Below are positions 3,934 to 34,451 of a stretch of DNA of 64,000 nt, one piece after another. Position numbers and translations under genes: made by a program. This stretch comes from Aureliella helgolandensis (lineage in GTDB: Bacteria; Planctomycetota; Planctomycetia; Pirellulales; Pirellulaceae). The notes below the pieces were generated by a model. That model was given only the letters and a program-made list of their open reading frames with translations, made no database searches and was not told where the DNA came from. Position 1 is the first letter of the stretch, and each line of letters starts with the position of its first letter. The stretch is taken from assembly GCF_007752135.1 (NCBI RefSeq), contig NZ_CP036298.1, positions 5,516,859 to 5,580,858 on the forward strand. Direction: 5' to 3'.

Positions 3934-4557
3934 CTATCTCGTTCCAACGTAGACGTGGCAACTGCTAAACAGACCGTTCCACCACCAAGTCGAGCCGTGA
4001 TCGTAAAACAGATCTTCATACATATCATTATCTTGTTCCGGAGTTTGCGGATACGTCTCTGTGACATTTCCTGCAAACATCAAACTGCTGACAGTTTGGC
4101 ACTTGATTTTCTTTGGTTTGACCCACACACCTAAGCAGGCCGCAATTTCTGTGCAGAGATCGACTCCCCCGCCACTTCCATCGCCACTGCTACAAGATCC
4201 TTGATTAGCGGGGCCGGCTACTTCGCAGCAGTAGTAACCGCCGCAAGGCTTATCGACACAAATCTTCGAATGGTCACCAGGACTCGAACCGCCAAGCCAA
4301 TAGCTGCCTGTTCCCTCTGGATCAATTCTTTTCGATGGCTGGCTTCGCTCGAACTCATAAAGATTTTCACCATCCGCATACCCAATCGGATCCCTGGAGC
4401 AGAATCTCACTAAATTGGCGTCGTAAAGTCCAGCTCTGCAATAGTACAGCTTCGGCGTGTCGTCCCATTCGCGGTCTGTGTAAGTGTAACGATTACTGTG
4501 CGAAGAGCTACTGCGAGGGTGCCCTATGCATCGGTACTCCACAAGCGATGTAGGCAT
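3934..4557 (-). CDS. Orphan RHS C-terminal toxin cassette 4 (last YD repeat, core end, then Cys/Gly-rich tip).
   Basis: YYCRAGLYDANLVRFCSRDPIGYADGENLYEFERSQPSKRIDPEGT matches the RHS terminus RYYDPxxGRFxSxDPIG...DPxG. The variable tail follows. Confidence 0.6.
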   Translation of the reverse strand: MPTSLVEYRCIGHPRSSSSHSNRYTYTDREWDDTPKLYYCRAGLYDANLVRFCSRDPIGYADGENLYEFERSQPSKRIDPEGTGSYWLGGSSPGDHSKICVDKPCGGYYCCEVAGPANQGSCSSGDGSGGGVDLCTEIAACLGVWVKPKKIKCQTVSSLMFAGNVTETYPQTPEQDNDMYEDLFYDHGSTWWWNGLFSSCHVYVGTR

Positions 4558-4729: not shown

Positions 4730-5782
4730 CTACCGCCCCCAGAACCTACGCTGATTGGCCCTCCAGCGTTCAACGTCGATGTACGGCTTGCGCTGTGGAT
4801 CGGGAGCCGGTTTTGGCTTGACCGGTACCTTGCGGCGTTCTTCTTCAACCAGCCGGACTCCGCAGTAGTGCCCAGCAGCACAGGCATTGTACAGTGCATC
4901 GAACCAGTGGTTTTGCTTCCGCTTGCGGTCCCACTTGGTCACCATGCCCTTGCCTGAGATGAACTCCTCGGTCTTGACTTCAGCGGTCAGGTGCTTGGCG
5001 AAGGACAGGTGTTCCGTTGCACTGGCTTGGAAGAGTGTAATGGCTCCCACTCGGCTCGTGGGCGTGCTGAGACGTTGGTGTACCCAGGTCTTCCAGTGAT
5101 CCGCATCGACCTCCGCTAGGTAGACATTTGCATTGGGCAGCCAGTTGATATGGAAGCCTTCCCCCAGGTGCTGAACGACAGAGCCAGTTTGCGTCTCACG
5201 ATTCTGCCACTGCTGATGTTGCTGCGAGGCGCCACGCCCCACCGAGGGAATAAAGCGATTGCCCGACTCTCGATTGAATGCATACACCACGTCGGTCATG
5301 TAGCCAGCGTCGATGAAGCATAACTGGGGTATTAGTGTCTCACCTCCCACGACGCCAATGGGCCAGCCTGCGAGCACCATGGCTCGGAACTGTCGTAGGG
5401 CTACCATCGTTGCCTGCTCAACGCCCAGGTCGTCCGAGGCCACTTCAATGCGTCCGTAGTCCACAACGTGTCCATAGGGGCCTGCCGACCACGCTACCAC
5501 AACCCAATGATTGAGGTACTTGCCCAGATCCATCGCGATGGTGAGCGTGACCGTCAACCAACTTCGCATTAAGTATGCGGACGTATTTGGTGAGGGGACC
5601 AACGGTCGGAACAAAGTCTGGTTGCTCAAACGGATTGCTTGGCGAATGCAGGCCAACGAGGAAGGTGATCTTTCCGAACGGGCTCGTAAACGGGCCATTG
5701 AAATTGCGAACGATGCAGACCTACGGATGCTGCCGCCACGACGACCCAAGCTATCGGCCGACTCCTCCGAGCGGACCGTCAC
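4730..5782 (-). pseudogene. Phage terminase large subunit (GpA-like) C-terminal fragment. The N-terminal ATPase region is absent.
   Basis: C-terminus ...KWDRKRKQNHWFDALYNACAAGHYCGVRL resembles the GpA terminase nuclease tail (NHxLDxxVYAxAAA). Only about 350 aa are present, and the 5' end overlaps the DUF2924 gene. Confidence 0.45.
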
Positions 5783-6002
5783 GAAGAAAATCGGGATTGC
5801 TCAATCCAACGAGCTTCTTCCCGGTACCAAACTTCAGCGGGTCTACAAGGGAGAAACGTTCTCGGTCACGGTGCTGGAAAGTGGATTTGAGTTCCAAGGT
5901 GAACGCTTCAAATCACTGACTGCGGTTGCCAAGGCTGTCACCGGGAAGCACTGGAACGGCTTTCACTTCTTCGGCCTGCGTCAACCAAGGAGTGCCAAAT
6001 GA
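5511..6002 (+). CDS. DUF2924-family protein, the usual partner of large serine recombinases in integrative elements.
   Basis: Motifs RIAWRMQA, LSERARKRAIEIAN and GxxLxRxYKGETxxVTVLESGFEFxGERFKSLTAVAKAVTGxHWNGFxFFGL typify DUF2924. The stop overlaps the recombinase start. Confidence 0.6.
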   Translation: MRYLPRSIAMVSVTVNQLRIKYADVFGEGTNGRNKVWLLKRIAWRMQANEEGDLSERARKRAIEIANDADLRMLPPRRPKLSADSSERTVTKKIGIAQSNELLPGTKLQRVYKGETFSVTVLESGFEFQGERFKSLTAVAKAVTGKHWNGFHFFGLRQPRSAK

Positions 6003-7558
6003 GCGGTCGAACAAAAGAGAAGCCGCCTGCTAGAGACGTCGTGCGGTGTGCAATTTACACACGCAAGTCGACGGAGGAGGGACTTGAGCAGGAGTTCAAT
6101 TCCCTCGATGCCCAGCGCGAGGCAGGGGAAGCGTACATCAAGAGCCAGCAGCATGAGGGCTGGGTGTGCGTGCCGGATGCGTACGATGACGGTGGATTCA
6201 CCGGCGCCAATATGGAACGTCCAGCTCTGCGACGACTGCTCTGCAACATCGAAGAGGGGAAGGTAGACTGCGTCGTCGTTTACAAGGTCGATCGACTGTC
6301 TCGCAACCTGATGGACTTCGGACGCATCATCGAAATACTCGACAGGCACAATGTGGCGTTCGTATCGGTAACTCAATCATTTAACACTTCGACATCGATG
6401 GGGCGACTGATCCTGAACGTGCTCCTGTCCTTCGCCCAGTTCGAACGGGAAATGATTAGCGAGCGCACCAGGGATAAAATTGCAGCCGCGCGACGCAAGG
6501 GCAAATGGTCTGGAGGCATGCCTGTCCTGGGCTACGATGTGGTCAATACAAAACTGGTGGTAGACGAATGCGAAGCAGGGCGGGTGCGAGAGATCTTTCG
6601 GCTGTACCTCGATCAACAATCCCTGTTGGACGTTGCCAAGGAAATCAACGCGCGGGGCTGGCGCACCAAGCGTTGGGTCACCAAGAAGTCCGAGGTGCGC
6701 GGTGGAAAGCTCTTCGACAAGGGTTCGCTGCATCGACTGCTAACCAACGTTGTCTACATCGGCAAGCTCACTTATAAGACTGAAGTCCATGAGGGCGAGC
6801 ATGAAGCCATCGTGGACCTTGATGCGTTCAACCAGGCTCAGGCGCTGCTTGAGCGGAATGGGAGAAGTGGTGGGCGAGAAGTCCGGAACAAGCACAATGC
6901 TCTATTGCGGGGCTTGATGCACTGCGGGGCCTGCGACTGCGGCATGAGCCATTCGTATTCCAAGAAGGGTAGCAAGCTCTACAGATACTACGTCTGCCAC
7001 AGGGCGCAAAAGCGGGGCTGGGAGGAGTGCCCTGCGCCATCACTCCCGGCGGGGGAGATTGAGCGATTCGTAATTGACCAGATTAAACGCATTGGCCGAG
7101 ATCCGGCCCTGATTCGCACCACGTTGGCGCAGGTGCAACGACAATCGGACGAGGAACTCCAACGCCTAGCGGCTGAGAAAACGGCACTGGGCCGCGATGT
7201 GCGGCAAGACTACGTCGAGGTTGGCAGATTGGCGGGTACCGCAATGGCTGGCGATCCAAGACTGTTGGAGGTTCAAACTCGAATCCGGGATGCTGAACGT
7301 CGGATGACCGTCATCGGAGAAGAGCTGGCATCGCTGAAATCGCAGGTGATTGATGAAAAGGACGTAGTAGCCTCCCTGGGGGAATTCGACAGCACCTGGG
7401 AAGCACTCGCACCACGGGAACAGGCCCGCGTACTGGAGTTGCTCATTGAACGAGTTACCTACGATGCCGACACCAGCACGCTGTCGATCACTTATCGACC
7501 AACCGGTATCAAGTCGCTGGCCAAGAAGGGTATTGATCGAATTGAGGAAGCAGCATGA
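5999..7558 (+). CDS. Large serine recombinase (resolvase/invertase N-domain, recombinase domain, zinc ribbon).
   Basis: N-terminal CAIYTRKSTEEG...SLDAQRE...VVVYKVDRLSRNLMDF catalytic-serine motif; central recombinase domain; Cys cluster CGACDCG...C...C. Confidence 0.9.
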   Translation: MSGRTKEKPPARDVVRCAIYTRKSTEEGLEQEFNSLDAQREAGEAYIKSQQHEGWVCVPDAYDDGGFTGANMERPALRRLLCNIEEGKVDCVVVYKVDRLSRNLMDFGRIIEILDRHNVAFVSVTQSFNTSTSMGRLILNVLLSFAQFEREMISERTRDKIAAARRKGKWSGGMPVLGYDVVNTKLVVDECEAGRVREIFRLYLDQQSLLDVAKEINARGWRTKRWVTKKSEVRGGKLFDKGSLHRLLTNVVYIGKLTYKTEVHEGEHEAIVDLDAFNQAQALLERNGRSGGREVRNKHNALLRGLMHCGACDCGMSHSYSKKGSKLYRYYVCHRAQKRGWEECPAPSLPAGEIERFVIDQIKRIGRDPALIRTTLAQVQRQSDEELQRLAAEKTALGRDVRQDYVEVGRLAGTAMAGDPRLLEVQTRIRDAERRMTVIGEELASLKSQVIDEKDVVASLGEFDSTWEALAPREQARVLELLIERVTYDADTSTLSITYRPTGIKSLAKKGIDRIEEAA

Positions 7559-7941
7559 TTCAGACTCAACACAAGATTCATTTCAAATCGGGAAGGCGCT
7601 CGCGTAAGGAACTGTCGGATGGGGTCGCCGTAGCTCAGCCAAAGGGTCGGCTGCCTCGCATTACCAAGTTGATGGCTCTGGCGATTCGTCTTGACCATCT
7701 CATCAAGACTGGGCAAGTAACCGATCAAGCAGAGCTGGCACGCGTGGGGCATGTATCGCGGGCGCGGCTCACTCAAATTATGAATCTGCTCTATCTGGCG
7801 CCGGACATCCAAGAGGAGCTACTGCACCTGCCAGTCACGGTGAACGGACAAGATGCAATGATTGAACGGGACCTGAGGGCGATTGCGGGGATGGCGAGTT
7901 GGAAGAAGCAGCGGTTAAAGTGGAAACGGATTCACTCGTAG
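7555..7941 (+). CDS. Small hypothetical HTH-like protein translationally coupled to the recombinase. It has a paralogue at 12401-12778.
   Basis: ATGA overlap with the recombinase stop. Shares ITKLxALAIxxDHLIxxGxVxxQAELARxGxVSRxRLxQIxNLLxLAPxIQ with ORF 12401-12778. Confidence 0.5.
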   Translation: MIQTQHKIHFKSGRRSRKELSDGVAVAQPKGRLPRITKLMALAIRLDHLIKTGQVTDQAELARVGHVSRARLTQIMNLLYLAPDIQEELLHLPVTVNGQDAMIERDLRAIAGMASWKKQRLKWKRIHS

Positions 7942-8139
7942 CAAAGTTTCAAGTTCCACTTGTGGATCTGCAGACTTACCGACTGTCGATCGGTGACCTC
8001 ATTTAGGCTATTTTTGGTGGGAGTTACAGCAGGCTTCCTACAACTATGATGAAGAGATGCAAACTGAACGGCAATCGGATTGCGGTTTTGCGTCTCGCTG
8101 GGGCCCACGGAGGTCGAGTTGCTAGGCCAAGGAGCAACG

Positions 8140-9057
8140 CTAGGTCAATCTTGCTGAAGGATCGCCAGGCTCGTTCTCTGGTAATGCCCCCGCTTCGACT
8201 ATCTCCTGTAGCTGCTCCAGAACGTCAGGATAGCCCTTCGATAAAAAACGGACAATTCTCGCGTTGTCGAGGAGCTTACGAAGGTAGCCTGTAATAATCA
8301 CCAAGTGAAGAACATTTTTGCCATGGGATCCCTCGATTGCCTTCAGCTCGCGAACTAGTACCCGAGACTCCTGCTCGATTCGGGCTAAATCGTCATTTGA
8401 CATAATCTCCGGTCCACTGTCTCGGACCGCATCAATTTGCAATTCAGCTGGAGTTGCAAAGACAAGGCATTTCATGTACCCAATCGAATAGTTGTGTGAG
8501 GCTGTCATTAGTTGGGCAATTTCTATTTGCCTGATCGGACGGACCTTTCGTAATTCTCTGATCGCTACTGCAGATGTGCGCTTACCGCGCAGTATATGAA
8601 TAGCTTCTTTACAGATGCCGTCGAGCAGGTCCCGCTTCTGACGGATTGAAGCAGGGTCAACATTGAGCGCCCTCGCGATTCGCTCCTCCGAGACGCCGTT
8701 CTTAATCGCCTTTAGTATCATGAAGTGCTCTTGGATCGCCGTTAGGCGATTAATTTTATGATTGAAAGTGAAGCCTTCGTCGTCGGTGGCTATGAGACAC
8801 TTGGCCTCTTTCGCCCCTAAATCAGAAAGAATCGCGTGCCGTATGTGCCCGTCCAATATCATGAACTGGCCCTCTAGCTGAGCCTGTGGGAAAACCACGA
8901 GTGGCTCAATAAGCCCAAGTTCCCTTATGGAAGCTTCAATACAGGAATACTTTGGTGTTTTGAGTAAGCCGGCCGACAAGATGCGGACTGGCAATAGGCT
9001 CGCAAGCGGCACGATGACGACTTCTGATTTACAAGCCAATTGGACTTTTTGATTCAT
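8140..9057 (-). CDS. ParB/Srx-fold (ParB N-terminal domain) protein with HTH, copy 2 of a tandem pair.
   Basis: VVIVPLASLLP...ELGLIEPLVV...FMILDGHIRHAI matches the ParB N-terminal nuclease/CTPase-like domain. HTH-like segment VSEERIARALNVDPASIRQ. Start overlaps the upstream ParB-like stop (ATGA). Confidence 0.7.
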   Translation of the reverse strand: MNQKVQLACKSEVVIVPLASLLPVRILSAGLLKTPKYSCIEASIRELGLIEPLVVFPQAQLEGQFMILDGHIRHAILSDLGAKEAKCLIATDDEGFTFNHKINRLTAIQEHFMILKAIKNGVSEERIARALNVDPASIRQKRDLLDGICKEAIHILRGKRTSAVAIRELRKVRPIRQIEIAQLMTASHNYSIGYMKCLVFATPAELQIDAVRDSGPEIMSNDDLARIEQESRVLVRELKAIEGSHGKNVLHLVIITGYLRKLLDNARIVRFLSKGYPDVLEQLQEIVEAGALPENEPGDPSARLT

Positions 9058-9950
9058 TTGTCTGTTCCGTCCTGACGAATGCGCTCGGCAAGCAACTGCG
9101 GCATTGAATCGAGTTGCTCCGCTTTCAAGAGCGTTTGGAACTGATCGTCCTTGTATAATTCGGTGAATGCTGAGATCGCCATTAGCAGTCGACTTTCGCA
9201 GGCCTTCGTCTTGCGGATCAGCATTTTTTGCCTGAGAGTTTCATCCTGATAGGTCTGCACCAACGACTTGCTTGTCACTCCATCTGCCGGTGTCTTTCTC
9301 ACCGACGATCTTGGGCGTTTCCCGCCATTTTGGCGCTGTTCAATGATGCGCTTAGCGCGCACAAGCGCGTCGCCCCGCAGTACGTTATTTTCATATGCTT
9401 CCTGGAGTGCAATCTGGACCCCCTTGTCGTCCGACGTTGCGATCACCACCGCGACACTCACAGCCAGAACCCCCTTTTCGATCGCAAGCAACAGACGCTC
9501 TTCTCCTTTCTCCAGGAGTTTCAGGAGTCCACGAATGTAGGTGACGTCAAGATCAGTCTTTTTCGCTATTTCACCCGCCGTGTATCCCCGTTCCTTGAGC
9601 ACACCGAGTTCGCGCACTAGTTCCACACCGGAATGTTTTCGTCGTGCCAAATTTTCAGCAAGACTCATCAGCATTAAATCTTCTTTTGCCCCTTCAGCAA
9701 TAATGCATGGAATTTCCTGCTGTTCGAGAGCGATATAAGCCTCGAGCCTACCCTGGCCGCAAACAAGGTTGTAAGCGAACGCATCATTCTTGATTCCTGC
9801 GGCGACTACCGTTACCGGCTTCTTTAATCCGATGGCTGCTATGTTAGATTTGATCTGGTCGAACTTCTTTCGGCCTCGCTCGCGTGGGTTCAGAACCGAG
9901 ATTTGTGCCACTGGAATCATTACAATATCGCTTCGAAACGTAACTGCCAA
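9054..9950 (-). CDS. ParB/Spo0J-like protein (ParB N-domain plus HTH), copy 1 of a tandem pair.
   Basis: IPVAQISVLNPRERGRKKFDQIKSNIAAIGLKKPVTV...GQGRLEAYIAL ParB box motifs; HTH YTAGEIAKKTDLDVTYIRGLL. No ParA-type ATPase is present nearby. Confidence 0.7.
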   Translation of the reverse strand: MAVTFRSDIVMIPVAQISVLNPRERGRKKFDQIKSNIAAIGLKKPVTVVAAGIKNDAFAYNLVCGQGRLEAYIALEQQEIPCIIAEGAKEDLMLMSLAENLARRKHSGVELVRELGVLKERGYTAGEIAKKTDLDVTYIRGLLKLLEKGEERLLLAIEKGVLAVSVAVVIATSDDKGVQIALQEAYENNVLRGDALVRAKRIIEQRQNGGKRPRSSVRKTPADGVTSKSLVQTYQDETLRQKMLIRKTKACESRLLMAISAFTELYKDDQFQTLLKAEQLDSMPQLLAERIRQDGTDK

Positions 9951-9951
9951 C

Positions 9952-11502
9952 TTACACCTCTACTTTCTCTCTGGCCGATGCGGACGCCAAGAATTCAAGA
10001 CTGTCGAACTGATACGTGTCCAGGTGGACACCATTTACTTCACAAAGCAGAAGCTTTGGCGAGTCGATATCGATGATTGGGAGCAGATAGTAATCGGCAG
10101 GCGCAGTATTCTCGATATTCATGCGGACCAGAATAGTGATATCAGGCGTTACGCCTTGATTCAGTTTTATCAACCACCGGAGGGATCCTGCCTGGGTCTG
10201 TCGGCATCGAGAGAGTACCATTGATGCGCTGTACTCTCCATTGATCAACAGAAGATCGCTCGTGGAATCTTGCGTTACAGTCGCGCCCGCGGCACCGAGC
10301 TTTGAGGTGACATCTGAGACAAGTTGTGGGTACATCTGCCGAAGATCACGATTGATTTCTACATACCGATAGTCACGGTCTGGTTGGAGACCGATCTGCT
10401 TATACGCCGCTAGTAGGCTTCCGAATCTAGATCGATAAACGCTGCTGGATGGCATCGAGTGGCACGCGTCGATGAGTTGCCCAGAGAGCCGCGAGTTCTG
10501 ATCGGCCAACTTACTTAGTTTCGCAATCAACTCGTCGTTGGTTATCTTTCGAGCTCGTTCTTGAATGATTCCTCGAGCAACAAAGAACTCTTCGAGGGAA
10601 ACCACCGGTTCGAATGCTTGCTCGTGACGAACCCACATTTCCGGAGCGTTCTCGACTCGCTTCTTCTTCAGTTTGAAGGAAGTGCGGTTGTAGACATTGT
10701 TTCCAACGTACTTTTCGTTGGTGAGCACTTGATTGACGGTTCCCCGATTCCAGGAACGTCCGAGATCGGTTGAAATGCCCTTTTCATTTAACTCGTTTGC
10801 GATCTCGGCTTCCCGCTTTCCTTCCACAGTGAACGCGGTATAAATCCAGCGAACTGTCTCAACCTCCTCGTCGGGTCCCGGAACCAAGATCACTCTGTCA
10901 GTCTGCAGGCTTTTCCGCTCACCGCGTGCCAGCGGCCCTTTCTCGACGCCAGCCTGACTGATCAGCATGCGCCGTAGACCGAAGCCTGCCGGTCCGCCTT
11001 GCCGGTATCCAAGTTCGATTAGTCGGCACTGGCCTTTGAAAACCTTGGTCGAAAGCTCACGAGAGTACTCTCCAGCCATGGCTCGCTTCACACTTTTGAT
11101 GATTGTCGATGTGGGACCACCGTCATTCTCAAATGGCTCGGCACAGTAATGGACTTCTATCCCGGCACGTTTGCACAGATATTCGTAGTAGGCGCTTTCA
11201 TCTGCGTCTTGGAACCTCCCCCAGCGGCTAATGTCGTAAACCAGAATTGCTGAGAAGTCAGCTTTCCCGCACTGCACGTCGTCGATTAGCTGTTGGAGCG
11301 AGGCGCGCCCAGCCACATTAAGTCCACTTTTTCCCTCGTCCGCATAGGTCTTTACTATTTCGAATCCGCGGCGTCGGGCGAAATCCAAAATCGTATCGTC
11401 CTGATTGGCCGTAGAATATTGCTGGTGTTCGGTTGACATTCGCACGTATTGTGCAGCCCGAGTAAGGGTTTGAGGATGCTCATCAAGAGTTCGCAAATTC
11501 AC
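9952..11502 (-). CDS. Large serine recombinase (second copy, divergent from 5999-7558).
   Basis: AAQYVRMSTEHQ...ILVYDISRWGRF catalytic region, recombinase domain and C-terminal extension. Sits directly upstream of the two ParB-like genes in the same orientation (2-nt gap). Confidence 0.9.
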   Translation of the reverse strand: MNLRTLDEHPQTLTRAAQYVRMSTEHQQYSTANQDDTILDFARRRGFEIVKTYADEGKSGLNVAGRASLQQLIDDVQCGKADFSAILVYDISRWGRFQDADESAYYEYLCKRAGIEVHYCAEPFENDGGPTSTIIKSVKRAMAGEYSRELSTKVFKGQCRLIELGYRQGGPAGFGLRRMLISQAGVEKGPLARGERKSLQTDRVILVPGPDEEVETVRWIYTAFTVEGKREAEIANELNEKGISTDLGRSWNRGTVNQVLTNEKYVGNNVYNRTSFKLKKKRVENAPEMWVRHEQAFEPVVSLEEFFVARGIIQERARKITNDELIAKLSKLADQNSRLSGQLIDACHSMPSSSVYRSRFGSLLAAYKQIGLQPDRDYRYVEINRDLRQMYPQLVSDVTSKLGAAGATVTQDSTSDLLLINGEYSASMVLSRCRQTQAGSLRWLIKLNQGVTPDITILVRMNIENTAPADYYLLPIIDIDSPKLLLCEVNGVHLDTYQFDSLEFLASASAREKVEV

Positions 11503-11624: not shown

Positions 11625-12077
11625 CTACCGATGGCAACGAAAGGAATAATGGCAGCGCACCGAGCCATCGATGCGGTCCGCAACCGCGTTCAGGCCGGCT
11701 TTGCGCAGCTTGATTCGAAGCGTTTTGATCACGCTTCTAATCGCAGAATCAGACCGCACACCTTCCCATAGTTCTTTGAGTAGGACGTTATGCGGGACAT
11801 AGATGCCTGGAGTGCGCATCAGTCGAGCTAAAATTTTGAAGGGCAGCGTATTACCTAGAAAACAGCACTTGCCGTCGTGGTAGACGCAGAGCATCTGCTG
11901 GTCGATTCGCGGCTCACTGCTCAGGCGTGTGTCGGTAGTTTCCTGGTTTGGTGGCCTAAGTGCTGCTTCGATAGTTGCTTTCAATGTCTGGAGGATCTCA
12001 GAGTGCGACCGGTGTTCCAGGATCAGTGTGTCAATCGCATCGCGCATCAGCTTCAGGTCTTCAGCAGCAATCATCAC
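11625..12077 (-). CDS. Winged-helix DNA-binding protein (OmpR/PhoB-type C-terminal effector domain only).
   Basis: LPFKILARLMRTPGIYVPHNVLLKELWEGVRSDSAIRSVIKTLRIKLRKAGL resembles the trans_reg_C winged helix. No receiver domain. Confidence 0.45.
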   Translation of the reverse strand: MMIAAEDLKLMRDAIDTLILEHRSHSEILQTLKATIEAALRPPNQETTDTRLSSEPRIDQQMLCVYHDGKCCFLGNTLPFKILARLMRTPGIYVPHNVLLKELWEGVRSDSAIRSVIKTLRIKLRKAGLNAVADRIDGSVRCHYSFRCHR

Positions 12078-12400
12078 ATGTGCCTCGGTGGAATTGAGCC
12101 TTTTCCATTCAACTTTGGCACGGCCGGCTTCGAGAGGCTAGCCAATTCTCTGTAAGTTTGGCCCTCTGGAGAATTCAAAGACTAAGAAGGTCCATCCGTT
12201 AGGGGGGGGGGGGCCGTGATTATCACCCCATCACTTGACCTACGACGGCGACGACAGCATGCTTTCCATCGCTTTTGGTTCGAAATCAATTCACCGGCCA
12301 AGCAGACTGTGGTACGAATTGAGGAGACAGCGTGTTCCAGTCCCAGCACGGGATAAGTTTCAAATAGGGTAGGCGTTCGCGGAAAGAGCTGGCAGACGGA

Positions 12401-12778
12401 GTGGCTGTACAAGGTTGTCGGGACCGGCTGACACGCGTCACCAAACTGCTCGCCCTTGCCATCCACTTCGACCACCTCATTAACGCCGGAGCAGTCATAT
12501 CCCAAGCCGAACTCGCCCGCCTCGGCCAAGTCAGCCGCCACCGCCTACCCCAAATCGTGAACTTACTGCACCTCGCTCCCAATATCCAACACCCAATCCT
12601 GCATCTCCCCCTGCTCACATCCGGTCGCGGTCCGATCACGGAACGCGAAATTCAACGGGTGAGTTGTATTCACAACTGGGAAAAGCAGGCAAACAGGAAG
12701 CGGTGCAGCGATTTTCGGCATGACGAAAAAGCGATTCGCTGCTCGCAATCGCTGTATCCGTGGTCTATCATTTATTGA
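12401..12778 (+). CDS. Small hypothetical HTH-like protein, paralogue of 7555-7941.
   Basis: About 45% identity over the core with ORF 7555-7941 (VTKLLALAIHFDHLINAGAVISQAELARLGQVSRHRLPQIVNLLHLAPNIQ). Confidence 0.4.
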   Translation: MAVQGCRDRLTRVTKLLALAIHFDHLINAGAVISQAELARLGQVSRHRLPQIVNLLHLAPNIQHPILHLPLLTSGRGPITEREIQRVSCIHNWEKQANRKRCSDFRHDEKAIRCSQSLYPWSIIY

Positions 12779-12806
12779 TAGACTTCCCGCTTCAAAGGAA
12801 AAAGAC

Positions 12807-13067
12807 ATGCCCCACTACCATCGAGCTATCGAAATTCAACAGCGACTTGAAGCTGTTCTTGAATTGGTTGCGGCTGGACAATACTCCACGCCACAAATTG
12901 CCGATGAAGTAGATGTGTCGACGGCAACGATTTCACGTTGTATCGACGCTTTGAGAAAACAAGGACACCGCATCGAGTCCGTCAAGATCGACGGTCAATG
13001 GTGTTATCGGCTGCAAGGAAGTGGTCAAAAGGGTTCGTCCAATCTCGCAAAGGCAGGGAAGTCATGA
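12807..13067 (+). CDS. Small HTH transcriptional regulator, first gene of a three-gene operon.
   Basis: ATG at 12807 preceded by GGAAAAAG. HTH-like segment YSTPQIADEVDVSTATISRCIDALRKQGHRI. Stop overlaps the ATPase start (ATGA at 13064). Confidence 0.55.
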   Translation: MPHYHRAIEIQQRLEAVLELVAAGQYSTPQIADEVDVSTATISRCIDALRKQGHRIESVKIDGQWCYRLQGSGQKGSSNLAKAGKS

Positions 13068-14056
13068 ATGCGGAACTACTCAAACGAATCATGCGAGCCA
13101 TCGCCAATGGTTCACAAGACGACCTCGAACAGCTTGCGGCGCGAGTCATTGATCGCGAACGTCAAAGCGGACACAGTCGGCTGGCAAATCAGCTCGAAGG
13201 CATTATGAGCAAGCCGCGTCCCCAGGTCGGTCGACCGGAAGGTGGCGGTAGTTCTGATCGAAATCTGTCCCAGCTACCTGTTAGTCGCCGGCACCAAGAG
13301 TTGCTCGCGACCTTGTTGCCACGTGAAGAACTCGAGCACCACATGGTGTTGCCGCCGGAGATCGAGAAACGCTTCGCTCGTGTCGAACAAGAATTTGCCG
13401 CCCGCGAACGCCTCGGAGCTTACGGTCTGAAAAACCGTAAGACGATTCTGCTTTACGGTCCTCCCGGATGCGGAAAATCTCTCGGAGCTAAACGTTTGGC
13501 ATGGAACACTGGCCTTCCACTACTAAAAGTCCGTTTCGACGCGCTCTTGTCGTCCTATTTCGGTGAGTCTGCCAGCAATCTGCGTGCAGTGTTCGACTCT
13601 GCCAAAGCACAGCCTTGCGTTTTGCTTCTCGACGAGTGTGACTTTATCGCGAAGTCAAGATCGAACACGCACGACATTGGCGAGGCATCACGTATCGTCA
13701 ATTCCCTGCTGCAATTGATGGAAGAATACGACGCGCCAGGACTACTGGTTGCCACAACCAACCTTGAAAACTCGCTCGACGACGCCTTGTTCCGTCGTTT
13801 CGACGATGTGTTTCAGATTCCGCCTCCAGGTGAAGATGAGATCAGTGAACTTCTTCGTACTACGCTTTCAGCCGTCAAGTGCGATGATAAACTTGCTTGG
13901 AAGAAAGCGATCAAGGAACTCGTCGGATCGTCCGCCGCTATGGTGGTGAAATCAGCCCGAGACGCAGCCAAAGCAGCCGTCCTGGGAGGCAAGAAGATTG
14001 TTGACACCCAGATCTTGCTCGCTGCCATCGACGAGAACAAACGAATCAACGAGTAG
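13064..14056 (+). CDS. AAA+ ATPase (IetA-like candidate).
   Basis: Walker A LLYGPPGCGKS, Walker B VLLLDECDF, sensor/arginine-finger region ATTNLENSLDDALFRRFD. About 130 aa N-terminal region of unknown function. Confidence 0.85.
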   Translation: MNAELLKRIMRAIANGSQDDLEQLAARVIDRERQSGHSRLANQLEGIMSKPRPQVGRPEGGGSSDRNLSQLPVSRRHQELLATLLPREELEHHMVLPPEIEKRFARVEQEFAARERLGAYGLKNRKTILLYGPPGCGKSLGAKRLAWNTGLPLLKVRFDALLSSYFGESASNLRAVFDSAKAQPCVLLLDECDFIAKSRSNTHDIGEASRIVNSLLQLMEEYDAPGLLVATTNLENSLDDALFRRFDDVFQIPPPGEDEISELLRTTLSAVKCDDKLAWKKAIKELVGSSAAMVVKSARDAAKAAVLGGKKIVDTQILLAAIDENKRINE

Positions 14057-14073
14057 CGTTTACAGGTCCACGA

Positions 14074-16689
14074 ATGCCGCCACCACCGTCGGAAAAGCCC
14101 TTTGACCATTTGCCGTTGGTACTGACCGGATCGGGTGACTCTCGCCCGCGAAAGCCGGTGGTGATGGATCCGAACCCGATAACCGAAGGTAACAAGGCAA
14201 ACCGAAGCGGACACGCTTCGAGCTTGCGGACGTCGTCGTTGGCTGTCGCCGAGCGTTGGAACGAAAGTCAAGCCGAGCGGGTCGCGGCAGGACTGCCGTC
14301 ACCCGAACCCGGCATCCCACTCTTATTGCAGATTGACACAGCGTTCGACCTGGACATTCTTCGACGACAGTTCAGTTTTGAAATTGTCTCCGAACACGAT
14401 GACGGCTTCGTCATTGTCGTCTCCAAAGATTTAGATCTGAGCCTGATCCAACAGAAGTTCGATGAATTCGAGCAAGAGGTGTACGGATCGGGTAGCATCG
14501 CCCAGATTCATGAACTCGTCAACGATGAGACACAGGAAGAACGACTTCGACGCATTCTTACCGATCAGTTGCTCAGCGAGTGGCCAACGCTCGCGGATGA
14601 CGCTGAGTACGTTGTTGATGTCAGTATCGCCTGCACCGGTGATTGGCAGATTCGCAATCGGCTCAAGCGAAATCCGCGATGGAAGCCAGAAACATGGGCA
14701 AGAAAAGAAAACGACTGGTCAAACGATCGCTTAGCCGCATACGAGCGATGGGATGCACTCAAAGATTCGCGGCTAGACGATGTCGAGGCGATGCTCGCAC
14801 CGTACAACGTTCAAGTTCTCAACAATTGGGACAATTCCGATGCGAAGTCTGTCCAACTGCCTGATAGCTTTACGCTAAGAATCCGAACCAGCGGTAAAGG
14901 ACTCCGCGACTTCGTCCTCAACTACGCTTACGTTTGGGAAGTCACTGAACCGGATGAAATTGAGACACCTCAGCAAGCAGCACGCAACCTTGCTGACCTG
15001 TCGGCCGGCCTTACCTTCAATGCTCCATCGACCAATGCCCCCGTTGTTTGCATCATTGACAGCGGCATCCAAGAATCCCACCTGTATCTTGAGCCCGCCA
15101 TTCGCGATTTCGAATCAAAGTGCTTTCTCGAAGGTGCTACGCCAACTGATGTGACTGACTGCGTCAAACCGAGCGGACACGGCACGCGCGTCGCTGGCGT
15201 CGTTCTGTACGGCGAGAATGTCCCAAAGTTCGGCATCGTCGACTTAGACTGCTGGATTCAAAATGCTCGCGTACTTGATGCACACTGCAAGATGCCGCTC
15301 ACGATGCTGCCGGCTGCGGTAATCCGTGATGTCGTCTCGCATTTCAATCGCGGCAAAAATCCAACGCGAATCTTTAATCACTCGATCAACTCGGCCGTCG
15401 CTTCACGCACACTGCATATGTCGTCGTGGGCAGCGGAGATTGACCAGCTATGCCACGATCGTGACATTTTGGTGCTCCAAAGCGTTGGCAACATTCGTCA
15501 GTCCAATCCCATACCCAACCCAGGCGTCGCCGAACAACTGGCCGCTGGCAAGTCCTATCCCGACTATTTGTCCGAGCCCGCATCACGCATTGCGAATCCA
15601 GCGCAGAGCCTGCAAGCGTTGACAGTCGGATCGGTTGCCTACGATACCGTCAACGCGGGCGGATGGCAGAGCCTTGCCAAACAGGGCGGTGAACCCTCCG
15701 CGTTCAGCCGCAGCGGCCATGGCATTTGGGACACCATCAAACCAGAGGTCGTCGAGTATGGCGGCGACTATATGATCGACGGTTCAACACCGCCAAGCGT
15801 AACCTATCCTGCCGCATGTGCGTCGGCGTATCCGATTCTGATCGGGTCAACGCTCCACGGCGAACCTGCAGTCACCCAAGACGATGTTGGCACCTCCTAC
15901 TCCACGCCAAAGGTCGCCCGGATCGCGGCTCGTTTGGCGGCTGTGATGCCAACGAATTCGTGCTTGCTCTATCGCGCCCTGATCATCCAATCGGCACAGT
16001 GGCCGGCGTGGGCCGAATCCCTCCCCATGCACGAGCAGATCAACATACTACGTCGTTTGGGATACGGGATTCCCAACATGTCGCGTGCGACCGAAAACAC
16101 CCAGTATCGTGCAACATTCACCACGTCGAGCGACCAAGTTCTCGGCACCAAGCAATGCCACGTGTTTCAAATCCCGATTCCAGCAGAACTACGAACGCCC
16201 GGTGGTGAGTACGACATCCGAATTGATGTGACGCTTTCGTACTCGGCCACTCCACGTCGAACCCGTCGATCGCCCCGCGGCTACCTAGCGGTTTGGCTCG
16301 ATTGGATTGCCAGCCAGTGCGGCGAATCCGCCGGCTCATTTTTGAATCGAGCACTGGCAACCGAAGATGATCCAGTCGGCGACCGCAATGGTGAACTGCC
16401 GTGGACACTGCACCCCATGACGCAACATGGACTATCCGGCGTGCGACGCAACCGAGGGACCGTTCAAAAAGACTGGGCCATCGTCAAATCGAATGCCCTG
16501 CCAGAAGATCTCAGCATCGCCGTTCGTGGACACCAAGGCTGGAGTCATGATCCCGACGAGACGGCATCCTACGCAATCGCTGTAACTTTCGAGATCGTCG
16601 GCCAAGAGATTCCGATCTATGAGCCGCTCCGTACTGCGGTCCTGGACCTACAGTTTGTTGTCGAAGTAGAGGTGGAAGCAGAAGTTTAA
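14074..16689 (+). CDS. Subtilisin-like serine peptidase (S8 family) with long N- and C-terminal extensions (IetS-like candidate).
   Basis: Catalytic triad motifs VVCIIDSGI (Asp), SGHGTRVAGV (His) and GTSYSTPKVA (Ser). 871 aa. 17-nt gap after the ATPase. Confidence 0.85.
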   Translation: MPPPPSEKPFDHLPLVLTGSGDSRPRKPVVMDPNPITEGNKANRSGHASSLRTSSLAVAERWNESQAERVAAGLPSPEPGIPLLLQIDTAFDLDILRRQFSFEIVSEHDDGFVIVVSKDLDLSLIQQKFDEFEQEVYGSGSIAQIHELVNDETQEERLRRILTDQLLSEWPTLADDAEYVVDVSIACTGDWQIRNRLKRNPRWKPETWARKENDWSNDRLAAYERWDALKDSRLDDVEAMLAPYNVQVLNNWDNSDAKSVQLPDSFTLRIRTSGKGLRDFVLNYAYVWEVTEPDEIETPQQAARNLADLSAGLTFNAPSTNAPVVCIIDSGIQESHLYLEPAIRDFESKCFLEGATPTDVTDCVKPSGHGTRVAGVVLYGENVPKFGIVDLDCWIQNARVLDAHCKMPLTMLPAAVIRDVVSHFNRGKNPTRIFNHSINSAVASRTLHMSSWAAEIDQLCHDRDILVLQSVGNIRQSNPIPNPGVAEQLAAGKSYPDYLSEPASRIANPAQSLQALTVGSVAYDTVNAGGWQSLAKQGGEPSAFSRSGHGIWDTIKPEVVEYGGDYMIDGSTPPSVTYPAACASAYPILIGSTLHGEPAVTQDDVGTSYSTPKVARIAARLAAVMPTNSCLLYRALIIQSAQWPAWAESLPMHEQINILRRLGYGIPNMSRATENTQYRATFTTSSDQVLGTKQCHVFQIPIPAELRTPGGEYDIRIDVTLSYSATPRRTRRSPRGYLAVWLDWIASQCGESAGSFLNRALATEDDPVGDRNGELPWTLHPMTQHGLSGVRRNRGTVQKDWAIVKSNALPEDLSIAVRGHQGWSHDPDETASYAIAVTFEIVGQEIPIYEPLRTAVLDLQFVVEVEVEAEV

Positions 16690-16784: not shown

Positions 16785-17570
16785 CTAAAGTGATGGGGCC
16801 CGTGCCGTCGCCGGCTTTTTTGGTGTAGAATTGTGTTCTCTCGCCAGGGCGGCAATCAGCTCAGGAAGTTCCTTGTGGCCGCCGATTCGATGGAACCCCT
16901 TTTCGGCCTCAAGCGGTGCGTACGACAGCCAGCGAATCGCCTGATCCGTGTCGGCTCGGAATCGTGTTACACGGCCCAAGCGGCGACGCGTGTTCTGGAA
17001 GGAGTTCTCAATTGCGTTGGTACTTAGCAGTGAACGATGGAGCGTGTTTGGCACTTCGAGTCGGTGAAGGGCTAGCAGGTCCTCACCGGCTTCATGAAGG
17101 CTCTTAAACGCCTCGGCATTGAGTGCTCAAGGAATGCCTCTAGCTCGCCGACGACCTCTTGTGCGGCGGTATAGCCCTGCACGCTACGGAGTCGTCTAAA
17201 CAGTCGAGCGAGTTCACCCGTATGACGCTTCGATAGCTTGCCACGAATGTTGCGTTCCTTGTGGACCAAGCAGCGTTGGATGGCCGAGGCGGGGAAGTGC
17301 TCCTTGCCCGCTTTGCAATACACTTCGGCATTCTGCGGATAGATTTCGGAGTCGTCCGGCTTTCCAGAGTCTTTCTTCGAGAGTCGGGAGTTGGCCGGAT
17401 AGGCCAAGACAAAGGTCGTATTCTTCGTATAACCCGCAGTAAACGCGGCCACTTAAAAACCCGCTACCTAGCGAGGTACAGCGGGTCGATTTGATGAATA
17501 CTAACTCCCTTATATCATGCACTGTAAACGCCGCTGATGAACGCCGAGATTTATGAATACTACGTACCAT
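16785..17570 (-). pseudogene. IS256-family (mutator-type) transposase remnant: frameshifted and N-terminally truncated.
   Basis: Fragments carry IS256 Tnp hallmarks QRCLVHKERNIRGKLSKRH and TNAIENSFQNTRRRLGRVTRF in different frames. Only about half of a roughly 400-aa transposase remains. Confidence 0.6.
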
Positions 17571-20830: not shown

Positions 20831-21432
20831 GGCCTCGGGCGATGCCCTGTGCGTACACCAATAACTGAGAGTCGCCGGGAAAACCAAGCAGTTTTCCACG
20901 AAGGGTTCGTTCCGGACACCGAAGCGAACCTGCTTGTTAACCCGATTCGTCCGGGAGAGCAGAGAGCGCGAGCATTTTGGGCCAGATTGGGTCCAGCTCG
21001 ACCGATGAGCAGCGCGCTAAAACCGCAGGGACGGGTTCTCTGAATAGCAGGTTGTGAGAAAACCTTGCAAAAACCACTATAGAAATGCAAAACGCCGAGG
21101 CGAAATGCTCTCGGCGTCTTGAGTTAACTAGGTTGTCGTCGCTATTCCGCAGCGAAAACAAGCTCCTCCGGTAGGACTCGAAGGTAGCCATTCCACTTTG
21201 GACTTGCGTTGGGCAAACGCTGATTTTGTGTTGATTTCCTTGCATTTTATGCGATTTGTAGCATTTTGCTAGGGCCGTCGTATTGAGCCTGTATTGGGCT
21301 TGAATTGCCAATACTGCCCCATTTTTGCCCCACAAATCGGCGTCGTTCTGGCTGCGTACAAGCCTCCGAAGCGAAGCTTGCAATGTACGTACATATGCCG
21401 TACAATTGCTGGTAATGAAAAGGAGCAATCAT

Positions 21433-21723
21433 ATGGCAACTGCTAATACATCAACTAAGTCAGCAAGGTTGGAAACACGTGTTTCCCAGGAGCAAAAGGA
21501 CCTGATCGAGCGAGCTGCGGCTTATTCAGGGAGGACGGTATCGGACTTTGTTGTTGCGCACGTGGAGGTTGCTGCCAAAAAGGTGGTCGAAGAATACGAG
21601 CGTATACACCTGGATAAGGAGCAGAGCCGCGTCTTGGTGGATGCTCTTCTGTCGCCTAAGCGGCCAAATAAGAAGCTCCGCGGTGCATTGGCTGAGCACA
21701 GCAAGCGAGTCGAAAGCAAATGA
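21433..21723 (+). CDS. DUF1778 (RHH, TacA/KacA-like) antitoxin.
   Basis: ATG at 21433 with AAAGGAG RBS. ARLETRVSQEQKDLIERAAAYSGRTVSDFVVAHVEVAAKKV is the DUF1778 signature. Stop overlaps the GNAT toxin start. Confidence 0.7.
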   Translation: MATANTSTKSARLETRVSQEQKDLIERAAAYSGRTVSDFVVAHVEVAAKKVVEEYERIHLDKEQSRVLVDALLSPKRPNKKLRGALAEHSKRVESK

Positions 21724-22217
21724 GCGATTTCGTATGCGAGCCGCTCAGCAAGAAACATGATAAGCAAGCATTTGATTGTGGCATCGCCGTTCTCAATAAC
21801 TATCTTGCCAAAATTGCTAGTCAAGATGTCAAGCGCAAAGCGGCAGCAGTGTTCGTATTGTCGCCAAGTTCCGAACCGTCTCGTGTCGCCGGCTTTTACA
21901 CACTCTGTTCAACTTCGATAGAGCTCTCAGCGCTTCCCCAGGAACTGACCAAACGCCTGCCACGTTATCCCGAAGTATCTGCAATTCTGATTGGTCGCCT
22001 AGCACGAGATGTTGCGTTTCCGGGAACCGGTTCATTGTTGCTTGCCGACGCGTTAAATCGCTGTGTTCGCGTCTCATCCGAAATCGCGGCCAGTGTAATT
22101 GTCGTCGATTCCAAAGGCGAGGCTGCGTCCAATTTCTATTCAAAGTTCGGCTTTATATCACTTCCACGAATGCCCCATCGAATGTTCCTGCCCATGGCCA
22201 CTGCTGAAAAGCTGTAA
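21720..22217 (+). CDS. GNAT-family acetyltransferase toxin (TacT/AtaT/KacT-like).
   Basis: GNAT fold motifs (AVFVL...GFYTLCSTSIE...IGRLARDVAFPGTGSLLLADAL) directly downstream of DUF1778. Confidence 0.7.
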   Translation: MSDFVCEPLSKKHDKQAFDCGIAVLNNYLAKIASQDVKRKAAAVFVLSPSSEPSRVAGFYTLCSTSIELSALPQELTKRLPRYPEVSAILIGRLARDVAFPGTGSLLLADALNRCVRVSSEIAASVIVVDSKGEAASNFYSKFGFISLPRMPHRMFLPMATAEKL

Positions 22218-23388: not shown

Positions 23389-24570
23389 CTAGGCGGTTAT
23401 TTTGGTAACGACGCCGGAGCCTACTGTCTTGCCGCCTTCGCGGATGGCGAAGTGGTCGCCGGTGCTTAGGGCGATGGGTTGTAGCAAGTTGACTTGCAAC
23501 TGCACGCCGTCGCCGGGCATGGCCATTTGGACGTCGCCGATGACGTGGGTCTTGCCGGTGACGTTCGTGGTGCGGAAGAAGAATTGCGGCGTGTAGCCGT
23601 CGAAGAACGGAGTGTGACGTCCGCCTTCTTCCTTCTTGAGCACGTAGACTTCCGCTTCGAACTGGCGACGAGGTGTTACTGAGCCACGTGCGGCGAGCAC
23701 TTGGCCTTTGTGGACTTCGTCGTGAGCAGTCTTGCGAAGCAAACAACCAACGTTATCACCTGCTCGACCGGACTCGAGGATTTCGGCGAACGATTCGACT
23801 TGAGTGACGACGTCACTGACTGTCTGATCGGTCAAGCCGATGATCTCGATGGCGTCGCCGGAACGGACAATGCCTTGCTCGATCTTGCCCGTCACAACAG
23901 TACCGCGGCCGGCGATCGAAAACACGTTCTCAATAGGCATGAGAAAGGGCTTGTCGATCTGTCGCACCGGATCGGCAATCGTCGTATCTAGTGCCTGTAG
24001 CAGCTCGTTGATACAGGCGATCGAGTCCGCGTCGGTCGGGTTGTCGTGAGCCAACTTGGCTGAGCCGCGGATCACAGGCACTTCCGCGCCAGCGTAACCG
24101 TACTGCGTGAGCATTTCTCGCAAGTCGAGTTCAACTAGCTCCAGCAGCTCAGGGTCTTCGACCAAGTCGCACTTGTTCATGAACACGACCAAGTAGGGCA
24201 CGCCAACTTGACGCGCCAACAGGATGTGTTCGCGAGTCTGCGGCATCGGTCCATCAGCGGCCGAGACCAAGAGCACCGCGCCGTCCATCTGAGCCGCGCC
24301 GGTAATCATGTTCTTGATATAGTCGGCGTGACCAGGACAGTCGATGTGCGCGTACATTCGGCTCTCGGTTTCGTACTTGACGTGCGAAGCCAGGATCGTA
24401 ACAGTCTTGTTCTTGTCGCGAACAATGCCTCCCTTGGCGATGTCTTGATACGACTTCACCTTGGCCAAGCCCTTGGCTGCCTGGACGCGCAGCAATGCTG
24501 CCGTAAGTGTCGTTTTACCGTGGTCGATGTGACCGATGGTTCCGACGTTGACGTTCATTTTAGTAACCAT
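23389..24570 (-). CDS. tuf: Elongation factor Tu.
   Basis: [26 protein letters not shown]...[26 protein letters not shown]...NKCDLV and the rest are unmistakably EF-Tu. AAGGAGG RBS upstream of ATG at 24570. ORF-track Met at 24615 is an upstream in-frame extension. Confidence 0.95.
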
Positions 24571-24703
24571 AGCTCTAAACCTCCTTTGTCGAGGAAATAC
24601 ACACCCGCTGGCCAATCGCGAAGGTGAGCAGCCTCCGCAACCTTTTTGTGCACTCGCAGCGCCAGAGCAGCCGGCATGTCAAACGGAAAGGAACAAGTGG
24701 ATC

Positions 24704-27384: not shown

Positions 27385-29070
27385 TTATAGCTCGATCGCT
27401 TCAACTTCGGCGACGAAACGCTGGTTGTTGTCAGCGAGGAACGCACTGATGACGTTGAACACGGCGTCACTGAAGCCACCGATGTTCATGATGTCAGCTC
27501 GCTCGCAAGCTTGCGTTGTTTGATACGGCTGGATGTCGATGCAAACAAGCTTTGTGTTCGCGTCGCGGCCGGCCAACTTGCGTTGGTTGGCTACGAAGGC
27601 TTCCCACGCCGTCATTACACCAGTCGATCCGTGACGGCCCGTTCCAACCCAACTCTCGTTGTCGCTGACCAGTACAACTCCCGCAAACTTGCGTTCGCGG
27701 TGCAGCACATTGGCAGCTTCTAAAGGTAGAGCACAGTTGGTTCCACCGCCTCCGTACTTGCTCAGTCGCTCGGCGATGCTGAGGATCGAATCGCTTGGAG
27801 CGATGCGCACATCGTAAGCTTGAGTGTCGAACGGAATGACAACGCTGTCCGGGTTGCGACGCAGGATGGCTGCGGCGAACAAGGCGGCGACGTCGACGCA
27901 GCGCATCTTCGAAGTAGCTCCACGGCCACGGTTACCCGTAACGGCGCATCCCATCGAACCTGACGTATCCAGACCGATTAGGACCGGACCAGGTAATTCA
28001 GGCACGTTTCCGCACGCGATCTCGGCTGCCTTGTGCAAAGCGGCCTTGATCTTGGCTGGCATCTGGTCGTCAGTGTTCACATACGCAGCAAAGTACTGGT
28101 ATGGGAACTGACGTGAGCGAGCCACTTCAGCAGCGTCGGCGATGCGATCGGCAACATAGTCGACCATATTGTGGCACGGCGGTCCCCCGCCGTGATCTTC
28201 GGTGGGGACCACCGAGCTACGTTCAAACACATCGTGACGTAGCAGAGTGTTCAAGTTCATGCGTAGTGCCTGCGGTCCCATCTTACGAGCGATCGCAGCC
28301 CACACGCTCGGCCCCTTGGCAGCATCGGCGAGCAAGTCCCAGCGGACACCCGCTAGTTCCCCCATAACGAGCAACTGAGTCGCTTCGTCTGTGGCTGCGC
28401 GGTAGGCTGCTATTGCTTGCACCTCGGCTGGCAAGTTGGCCTCGCCGGCAGGAGTCCACTTTTCGATGGCCTTATCCGTCAACCAACCGAACAGCGCTCG
28501 ACGCTCGTCGTCCTTCGGAGTCGGACGAGCCATACGCAGGATATCGCGCAGGCTCGGCTCGTTGCCGATAGACGCCGACAGTAACTTTGCGACTGAGGCT
28601 TCGTTCAACCATCGCTGGAAGGCACGCTGCACGGAGCTCGAAAGTCCCGTTCGCGCAATTCCAGCTCGGTTCTTGAACTGGCCAGAGCGGATCATCTGGA
28701 ACGTGGTTCGCAGCACGCGTCCGTTGTCGACTACGCGATCGAACACTCGATGCATCAGTTCTGTGTTGCGGACCGAAAGGGCGACCAGCAACGCGGCTGG
28801 CATGTCCTTCATGGCTGCCTTCTGCCGAGCGTACACAGCCAGCTTGGCCAGGTACTGGTCGTCGTCGATGGTATCGATCAACTTCAGCACTTCTCCGAGC
28901 TGCGTTCCCGCAGTTGAGTAGTAGGCATCGCCAAACGTACCGGTTGCGGCAACTTGGGCCAGCGCCTGCTTCGGTTCGAGCGTGTAGGCTCGACCACCTG
29001 CTTCGTTGACAGTGTCGGCGCGTGGCAGCCGCGAAGACTTGCTTGAGAATAGTGACATGTTAGCCATGGA
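27385..29070 (-). CDS. rsr: Ro60-like ribonucleoprotein Rsr (TROVE domain plus C-terminal vWA with MIDAS).
   Basis: TROVE helical repeats, then vWA with MIDAS-like [10 protein letters not shown]...SDNESW. The start is probably the Met of [12 protein letters not shown] at 29070 or 29061 (ORF-track start 29208 is less likely). Confidence 0.75.
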
Positions 29071-34450: not shown

Positions 34451-34451
34451 G

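Follow-up and report, generated by a model that had tools for sequence, protein, structure and literature searches.

The DNA analysed here, which we call the window, is a stretch of 64,000 nucleotides (nt) from the planctomycete Aureliella helgolandensis (contig NZ_CP036298.1), and our subject is an operon of three genes on its forward strand (Table 1). A small winged helix–turn–helix (HTH) gene, for which we propose the name ietR, is followed by ietA, which encodes an AAA+ ATPase, and by ietS, which encodes a subtilase of peptidase family S8. An earlier note on this DNA had listed three co-oriented genes of these kinds, and their limits were reproduced exactly by the open reading frames (ORFs) and by Pfam matches to HTH_11 (5.4e-8), AAA (5.9e-31) and Peptidase_S8 (2.3e-30, residues 322–665). 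The tight coupling that it described was likewise exact: the tetranucleotide ATGA at 13064–13067 is common to the stop of the HTH gene and the start of ietA, and a spacer of 17 nt, CGTTTACAGGTCCACGA, lies between the TAG stop codon of ietA and the ATG of ietS. We prefer the ietR start at 12807 over an upstream ATG at 12720, because HTH homologues begin at an equivalent M-x-Y in 38 of 38 cases and because the conserved operator described below would fall inside the longer reading. An Rfam search gave no RNA element within or near the operon, and a consensus scan of the region for promoters and terminators returned matches that were no more numerous than in shuffled sequence.

The locus is a genuine member of the IetAS family and belongs to a divergent clade that has its own regulator and operator. 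It is a regulated variant of IetAS and not a new kind of system, which answers the question, left undecided by the earlier note, of whether this ietAS-like ATPase–protease pair is an orthologue, a variant or something new. PADLOC model PDLC02196 (IetA) matched the ATPase at 8.9e-73 over residues 5–326 of 330, with three more IetA models matching too, and model PDLC02198 (IetS) matched the protease at 4.1e-60 over residues 250–839; the best NCBIfam families are those of IteA and IteS. For direct comparison we used the Agrobacterium fabrum Ti plasmid pTi1D1487 (214,233 bp), which we take to be of the pTiC58 type. Its IetA is 34% identical to the ATPase of the window over the full length (327 residues, E 1e-51), and its IetS is 25% identical to the protease over residues 317–857, so that the C-terminal domain is alignable up to residue 857. 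To our knowledge, the regulator and operator of this IetAS clade have not been described before. We read ietR–ietA–ietS as a self-contained, horizontally mobile three-gene module of the IetAS type, acting in toxin–antitoxin (TA) fashion and in abortive infection, and put the probability of this reading at roughly 0.7.

Distribution of the family is consistent with such a unit. A scan of species-representative genomes returned 375 loci, 80 of which were fetched for neighbourhood analysis. The 375 loci span Planctomycetota, Acidobacteriota, Beta-, Alpha- and Deltaproteobacteria, Nitrospirota and others, and the IetS family is conserved over its full length, with 48–91% identity across phyla and a mean column identity of about 69%; the closest IetS cluster representative, from Rhodopirellula bahusiensis, is 91% identical. 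Some homologues have a precomputed assignment to Pfam PF27160. The clade is also found on 10 IMG/VR viral contigs and, elsewhere, in defence-gene neighbourhoods. In each of the 76 related loci that have upstream sequence, the gene immediately before IetS encodes an IetA homologue, and the same holds for pTi, for E. coli and for eight other plasmid loci. Apart from ATPase, protease and HTH, the largest neighbour family recurs in only 6 of the 80 loci, and in the close relatives from R. bahusiensis and R. baltica the surroundings of the gene trio are different. Because the adjacency is strict while all other neighbours vary, we regard (HTH)–ietA–ietS as a conserved mobile unit. IetAS is a widespread TA and anti-phage system, and the present clade is a large and phylum-spanning part of it.

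The extra HTH gene pointed out in the earlier note is a real third member of the operon; it is conserved and has a predicted operator of its own. Of the 80 fetched loci, 38 have a homologue as the gene immediately before ietA, as do three additional loci (L081, L082 and L107). Matches of the protein to PADLOC and NCBIfam models are restricted to the HTH part of CasR, Csa3 and WYL regulators (PADLOC CasR 1.4e-6, WYL 3.1e-5); the PADLOC WYL model covers only profile positions 5–58 of 229, and a WYL sensor domain is absent. Upstream of ietR lies a perfect palindrome, TCTATC-ATTTATT-GATAGA, and the pattern TCTATC-N7-GATAGA has this single match in the window, with 0.01 expected by chance. It occurs exactly once in each of 29 HTH-bearing loci, whereas the loci without the HTH gene and the 10 plasmid loci examined all lack it. 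When up to two mismatches are allowed, the palindrome is present in 36/36 HTH-bearing loci with enough upstream sequence (27 of them perfect), always at −37 to −63 from the HTH start, and random windows typically show 4–6 mismatches to it. The arms are invariant across loci, the spacer of 7 nt is variable and the flanks are unalignable, which points to selection on a protein-binding site and not to shared ancestry. Many loci have a TTGACA −35 box 2 nt ahead of the palindrome, which there falls between the −35 and −10 elements. Because the conserved palindrome precedes every HTH gene, IetR is probably an autorepressor of the operon that acts through the predicted operator.

Regulators were typed in the 70 loci that had enough upstream sequence: 36 carry the HTH gene, 10 an MqsA-like XRE gene and 4 a HigA-like XRE gene, and 20 are without recognisable regulator. 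Regulator type tracks the IetS tree, with the winged HTH dominant in its planctomycete and acidobacterial part and XRE genes in two proteobacterial sub-branches. The MqsA-like gene lies about 125 nt upstream of ietA in betaproteobacterial and Komagataeibacter members of the clade. Such loci (L037, L040, L041, L046, L048, L054, L057, L061 and L069) have a palindrome of their own, TAGCAC-N3-GTGCTA, which overlaps a TATAA −10 element about 60–80 nt upstream of the XRE gene. We rejected the idea that these XRE genes are antitoxins of adjoining TA pairs; because a conserved toxin gene is missing in front of them, we take them for alternative regulators of ietAS. An XRE gene with its own putative operator is the same predicted regulatory layout built on a non-homologous regulator. 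The Burkholderia plantarii plasmid locus, which falls within the clade, also has an XRE-type regulator, and no such regulator was found at the pTi locus, the E. coli plasmid locus or seven further plasmid loci, all of which are outside the clade.

Both enzymes retain their catalytic motifs. Walker A, pore loop-1, Walker B, sensor-1 and the Arg fingers of IetA are all intact, and the closest solved structures are the D2 unfoldase domains of p97/Cdc48 (5e-49). IetA is a classical-clade AAA+ ATPase and, by analogy with other IetAS systems, the predicted antitoxin or controller of the module. For the protease, the earlier note had named the completeness of the D–H–S triad as a point to check, and D329, H369 and S608 are intact and, together with the oxyanion residue N435, invariant among 60 homologues. 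A sequence search detected no solved relative of IetS, and its best structural match is the subtilase KP-43. IetS is an intracellular subtilase and, by the same analogy, the predicted toxic effector.

Regions of IetS outside the catalytic domain are also conserved. Residues 1–26 form a conserved yet disordered motif (F10, L13, L15, G21 and R24), which is followed by a long helix at residues 35–71 and by two ferredoxin-like domains of β-α-β-β-α-β order at about residues 81–148 and 178–291, the second of which contains a helix of 40 residues. These extensions had been called unusually long, a description that did not hold: nine IetS proteins of other clades have 762–851 residues and their catalytic Asp at residues 257–296, versus 329 here, so that this is normal IetS architecture. 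The N-terminal region is co-linear with the N-termini of those nine proteins in hhalign, but the similarity is weak (probability 54%, E 1.3e-4). At the other end, a tail of alternating Glu and hydrophobic residues, (E-hydrophobic)n, about 16–24 residues long, terminates nearly all intact IetS proteins of the clade. E866, E868 and E870 are conserved at 90% or above, and the predicted local distance difference test (pLDDT) score is low at the extreme C-terminus. Similar tails end other IetS proteins (PEVAPEILIET in pTi; VENMVENPVEIMG in E. coli). The tail may be a handle that is engaged by IetA, or a pseudo-substrate.

According to the mechanism that we propose, a winged-HTH dimer of IetR would bind TCTATC-N7-GATAGA and repress its own promoter, and operon expression would then stay low and stoichiometric. 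Ordinary type II antitoxins provide such autoregulation themselves; IetR would supply it here, because IetA is without a DNA-binding domain. IetA, the YFG pore loop of which is intact, would act as a hexameric unfoldase and keep IetS neutralised at all times, most likely by gripping one of the conserved disordered ends of the protease. IetS, a cytoplasmic subtilase with two prodomain-like N-domains, would be the toxic effector: once the activity or supply of IetA is cut off, by phage infection or because the element is lost, IetS would be freed, cleave cellular or phage proteins and cause growth arrest.

Neutralisation of IetS by IetA, toxicity of IetS and its release are steps that we would transfer from the published genetics of other IetAS systems. 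In these, IetS is the toxin and IetA the antitoxin, and protease activity is required for defence, with mechanism and control described as unknown (PMC13069673). IetS alone is toxic, and ietA mutants could not be constructed while ietS was present (PMC13069673, PMC8562856, PMC5006074). SgiAT of SGI1 acts as a TA pair (PMC5006074), and so does a subtilase/ATPase pair of Mycoplasma (PMC8562856). An abortive-infection phenotype has been reported for IetAS, for which a phage protein can serve as trigger (bioRxiv 10.1101/2022.08.27.505566), and phage resistance has been shown for homologues from E. coli and B. cereus (PMC13069673; bioRxiv 10.1101/2022.08.27.505566).

A bolder version of this mechanism would make IetR and its operator an arming switch. 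Infection or element loss would free the operator, IetR possibly being a substrate of IetA or IetS, and the resulting burst of transcription would trigger defence, while IetA would restrain IetS by continuous threading of the Glu-hydrophobic tail. We consider this version unlikely as it stands. If true, it would give the first mechanistic handle on the control of any IetAS and would account for the repeated recruitment of winged HTH, MqsA-like XRE and HigA-like XRE proteins to the same position. A dedicated regulator with an invariant 19-bp operator offers, in any case, a testable entry point into how a predicted lethal intracellular protease is restrained.

Comparison with known systems helps to place the operon. 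IetAS of pTiC58 was reportedly described by Yamamoto et al. in 2009, and the IetAS defence system of PADLOC and DefenseFinder is said to go back to Gao et al. in 2020. Like the operon of the window, the pTiC58 system has an AAA+ gene directly upstream of a gene for an S8 subtilase of about 800 residues on mobile DNA, with the ATPase homologous over its full length and the protease over its catalytic and C-terminal domains. It differs in that our locus is chromosomal and planctomycete, belongs to a separate clade with scores below the NCBIfam equivalog cut-offs, has an IetS whose N-terminal 316 residues are only weakly alignable, and carries a winged-HTH gene and conserved operator that are both absent at the pTi locus, at the E. 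coli plasmid locus and at eight other plasmid loci.

Layout of the operon is also comparable to that of ω-ε-ζ of pSM19035 and of paaR-paaA-parE. In these systems the order is regulator–antitoxin–toxin, the antitoxin has no DNA-binding domain, and a separate small repressor acts at an operator in the promoter. The operon of the window has the same order, translational coupling, a palindrome at the expected place and, by prediction, repression. However, the proteins are unrelated, the antitoxin here is an ATP-driven machine and the toxin a protease. The winged helix of IetR, which is of the HTH_11 type, is similar to the N-terminal domain found in WYL, CasR and Csa3 regulators, and in CapW and BrxR (winged HTH–WYL–WCX) too a regulatory gene lies upstream of a defence operon and acts on a palindromic operator. 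Unlike these proteins, IetR has only 86 residues and lacks a WYL or WCX sensor domain; therefore it has no obvious part for sensing ligands or damage.

SgiAT of Salmonella Genomic Island 1 (SGI1) and TA132/133 of Mycoplasma mycoides also have an ATPase antitoxin gene followed by a subtilase toxin gene, on an integrated element or the chromosome, but consist of two genes each, with no dedicated repressor described. For SGI1 the authors inferred that the native sgiAT promoter needs activation (PMC5006074), the reverse of the autorepression that we propose. The ietHAS system (Liu-DS4; NAR 2026, PMC13069673) adds a third gene, essential or regulatory, to the IetAS core and has likewise been called a variant of the family. 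There the accessory protein, a large SNF2 helicase, behaves like an antitoxin, whereas ours is a predicted DNA-binding protein of 86 residues with a cognate operator.

Other explanations of the locus have to be weighed against the defence module. The operon may be mainly an addiction (post-segregational killing) module that stabilises its mobile element: loss of the element would end the supply of IetA, and the remaining IetS would kill or arrest the cell. Addiction is the original function reported for IetAS of pTiC58, and also for SgiAT of SGI1 (PMC13069673, PMC5006074). The neighbourhood suits it as well, in that the operon is adjacent to one made up of a serine recombinase and two ParB genes, has another serine recombinase, remnants of IS256 and a TA pair of the TacA type around it, and that PADLOC detected no other defence genes among ten neighbours; moreover, most plasmid matches of the family (340/483) are on conjugative plasmids. 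However, no element boundaries or att repeats can be defined around the operon, and the presence of the clade on viral contigs and in defence-gene neighbourhoods elsewhere speaks for a role beyond addiction. Addiction and defence are also not mutually exclusive, and IetAS homologues protect by abortive infection. Addiction as the main function is accordingly a tentative possibility, to which we give rather less than even odds.

Two further explanations concern parts of the operon. IetA and IetS might form an ATP-dependent protease machine similar to PAN–proteasome or ClpXP, with IetA unfolding substrates and feeding them to IetS. IetA is indeed a predicted classical-clade unfoldase with an intact pore loop that is closest to p97/Cdc48 and proteasomal ATPases, and the ATPase–protease adjacency is strict. 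Subtilases, however, are open-cleft enzymes that work as monomers and do not form self-compartmentalised rings; KP-43, the best structural match of IetS, is of the monomer type. The published genetics, in which IetA neutralises an IetS that is toxic alone, argue against such a machine too, and we find it very unlikely. The HTH gene, on the other hand, might be an unrelated neighbour, BirA-like or another regulator, with a palindrome that regulates something else. A 100% identical protein from Aureliella helgolandensis is named ‘Bifunctional ligase/repressor BirA’ (GenBank/UniRef), and 20 loci of the clade are without recognisable regulator. The BirA label is a misannotation, because the protein has 86 residues with an HTH_11 domain alone and no ligase domain. 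Besides, the gene overlaps ietA by ATGA, accompanies ietAS in 38 loci that otherwise differ in their context, has a palindrome that is confined to HTH-bearing loci and always lies 37–63 nt upstream of its start, and stays with ietA in two contigs (L108 and L109) in which ietS has been replaced. Co-occurrence data of this kind effectively refute an unrelated HTH gene, which we consider barely credible.

Several points weigh against the regulated defence module itself. Best-family scores in NCBIfam are far below the equivalog cut-offs, with 213.8 bits versus 510 for the ATPase (IteA_antiphage, NF042959) and 104.1 bits versus 900 for the protease (IteS_antiphage, NF042956). In contrast to other loci, the operon of the window has no TTGACA box in its promoter, and promoter sequences of planctomycetes are not well defined. 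Likeness of the IetS N-domains to prodomains is blunted by the generic nature of the ferredoxin-like fold, for which ribosomal S6 scores equal to subtilisin prodomains. The two conserved disordered segments of IetS, the N-terminal motif and the C-terminal tail, are candidate contact points for IetA by conjecture. Finally, the defence-island context that the earlier note had called typical turned out to be weak: ten neighbouring proteins gave no PADLOC match, and the TacA-like pair is 4.6 kb away. With no recognised defence system nearby, we can only extrapolate to a defence role in this host.

Table 1. Features of the ietR–ietA–ietS operon and of its surroundings (positions in the window)
Feature	Position	Strand	Remark
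ietR (proposed name), winged HTH, 86 aa	12807–13067	+	ORF; Pfam HTH_11
ietA, AAA+ ATPase, 330 aa	13064–14056	+	ORF; Pfam AAA; PADLOC IetA
ietS, S8 subtilase, 871 aa	14074–16689	+	ORF; Pfam Peptidase_S8; PADLOC IetS
Predicted operator, perfect palindrome, 19 bp	12764–12782	.	end lies 25 nt upstream of the ietR start codon
ietR HTH core, aa 26–53	12882–12965	+	
IetA Walker A, GPPGCGKS (K138)	13457–13480	+	
IetA pore loop-1, YFG (Y165-F166-G167)	13556–13564	+	
IetA Walker B, VLLLDE (D190/E191)	13619–13636	+	
IetA sensor-1, N233	13760–13762	+	
IetA Arg fingers, R244-R245	13793–13798	+	
IetS N-terminal region, aa 1–316	14074–15021	+	
IetS D329	15058–15060	+	triad
IetS H369	15178–15180	+	triad
IetS oxyanion N435	15376–15378	+	
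IetS S608	15895–15897	+	triad
IetS C-terminal β-rich domain, aa 666–848	16069–16617	+	
IetS C-terminal tail, ...LQFVVEVEVEAEV	16618–16686	+	alternating Glu/hydrophobic repeat
Terminator-like hairpin, then T run	16790–16811	+	100 nt past the ietS stop; consensus scan match only, weak
gpA terminase nuclease-like gene	4730–5782		
Large serine recombinase	5999–7558	+	
ParB/RepB-like gene	8140–9057	−	overlapping stop/start codons in recombinase operon
ParB/RepB-like gene	9054–9950	−	overlapping stop/start codons in recombinase operon
Large serine recombinase	9952–11502	−	operon with two ParB/RepB-like genes
IS256-type transposase remnants	16785–17452		downstream of the operon; then ORFs without assignment
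TacA-like (TacA-type) antitoxin pair	21325–22217		4.6 kb downstream of the operon

Surroundings of the operon differ in one respect from the earlier description, which had put a serine recombinase on either side of it. Both are in fact upstream, and a search for direct, inverted or att-like repeats flanking the operon found none, so that the island is not bounded by recombinases and no element boundaries could be defined. The recombinases, the ParB/RepB-like genes and the gpA-like gene may be what is left of an integrated element that resembled a plasmid or phage. Directly upstream of ietR, an ORF of 125 codons (12401–12778, +) with weak ParB-type HTH resemblance and no Pfam match has its stop codon inside the right arm of the operator; it is kept upstream of ietR in close relatives (L108, 5582–6004; L081). 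Farther upstream are a Trans_reg_C gene of 150 codons (11625–12077, −) and, between it and the 125-codon ORF, a G12 homopolymer (12202–12213).

The two marine metagenome contigs mentioned above, L108 and L109, retain an ietR that is 87% identical and a near-identical ietA, the frame of which is lengthened by 34 codons at the junction. In place of ietS they have three overlapping genes for proteins of 273, 201 and 277 residues (replacing region 7441–9694), none of which matched Pfam, PADLOC or NCBIfam. We considered whether IetA is paired here with alternative effectors and rejected this, because the same trio also occurs alone, without the ATPase, in three Planctomycetes loci (L110, L111 and L112, at about 5001–7260), where it adjoins an MmeI-type restriction enzyme, a DUF4145 gene and gpA-nuclease fragments. 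The trio is therefore read as an independent cassette that replaced ietS and left an orphan ietR–ietA, and is a candidate for an uncharacterised defence cassette.

Some features farther from the operon were also noted in the window. Between 400 and 4600 there are four copies of a motif of 22 nt and a repeat of 84 nt spaced by 1625 nt, together with tandem paralogous genes (405–1262, 1802–2680 and 3934–4557) that gave no Pfam or PADLOC match. A tRNA array at 34451–38043 (−) holds 35 tRNA genes in 3.6 kb for nearly all amino acids, with further tRNA genes at 30517–30591 and 33176–33246, and is flanked by an HNH endonuclease gene (33319–33984). Within 10 kb of the array lie an EF-Tu gene (23389–24615), an extracytoplasmic function (ECF) sigma factor gene and a Ro60/TROVE–vWA gene (27385–29208). 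The region resembles a translation-related island and may itself be mobile. The window also contains rve-type integrase genes at 39285–39977 and 44940–46013, a group II intron at 41377–42052 (−) that is recognised by RNA-domain matches only, and another group II intron at 55924–57787 (−) with an intact reverse transcriptase ORF (55924–57606) and a D1–D4 match of 126 bits.

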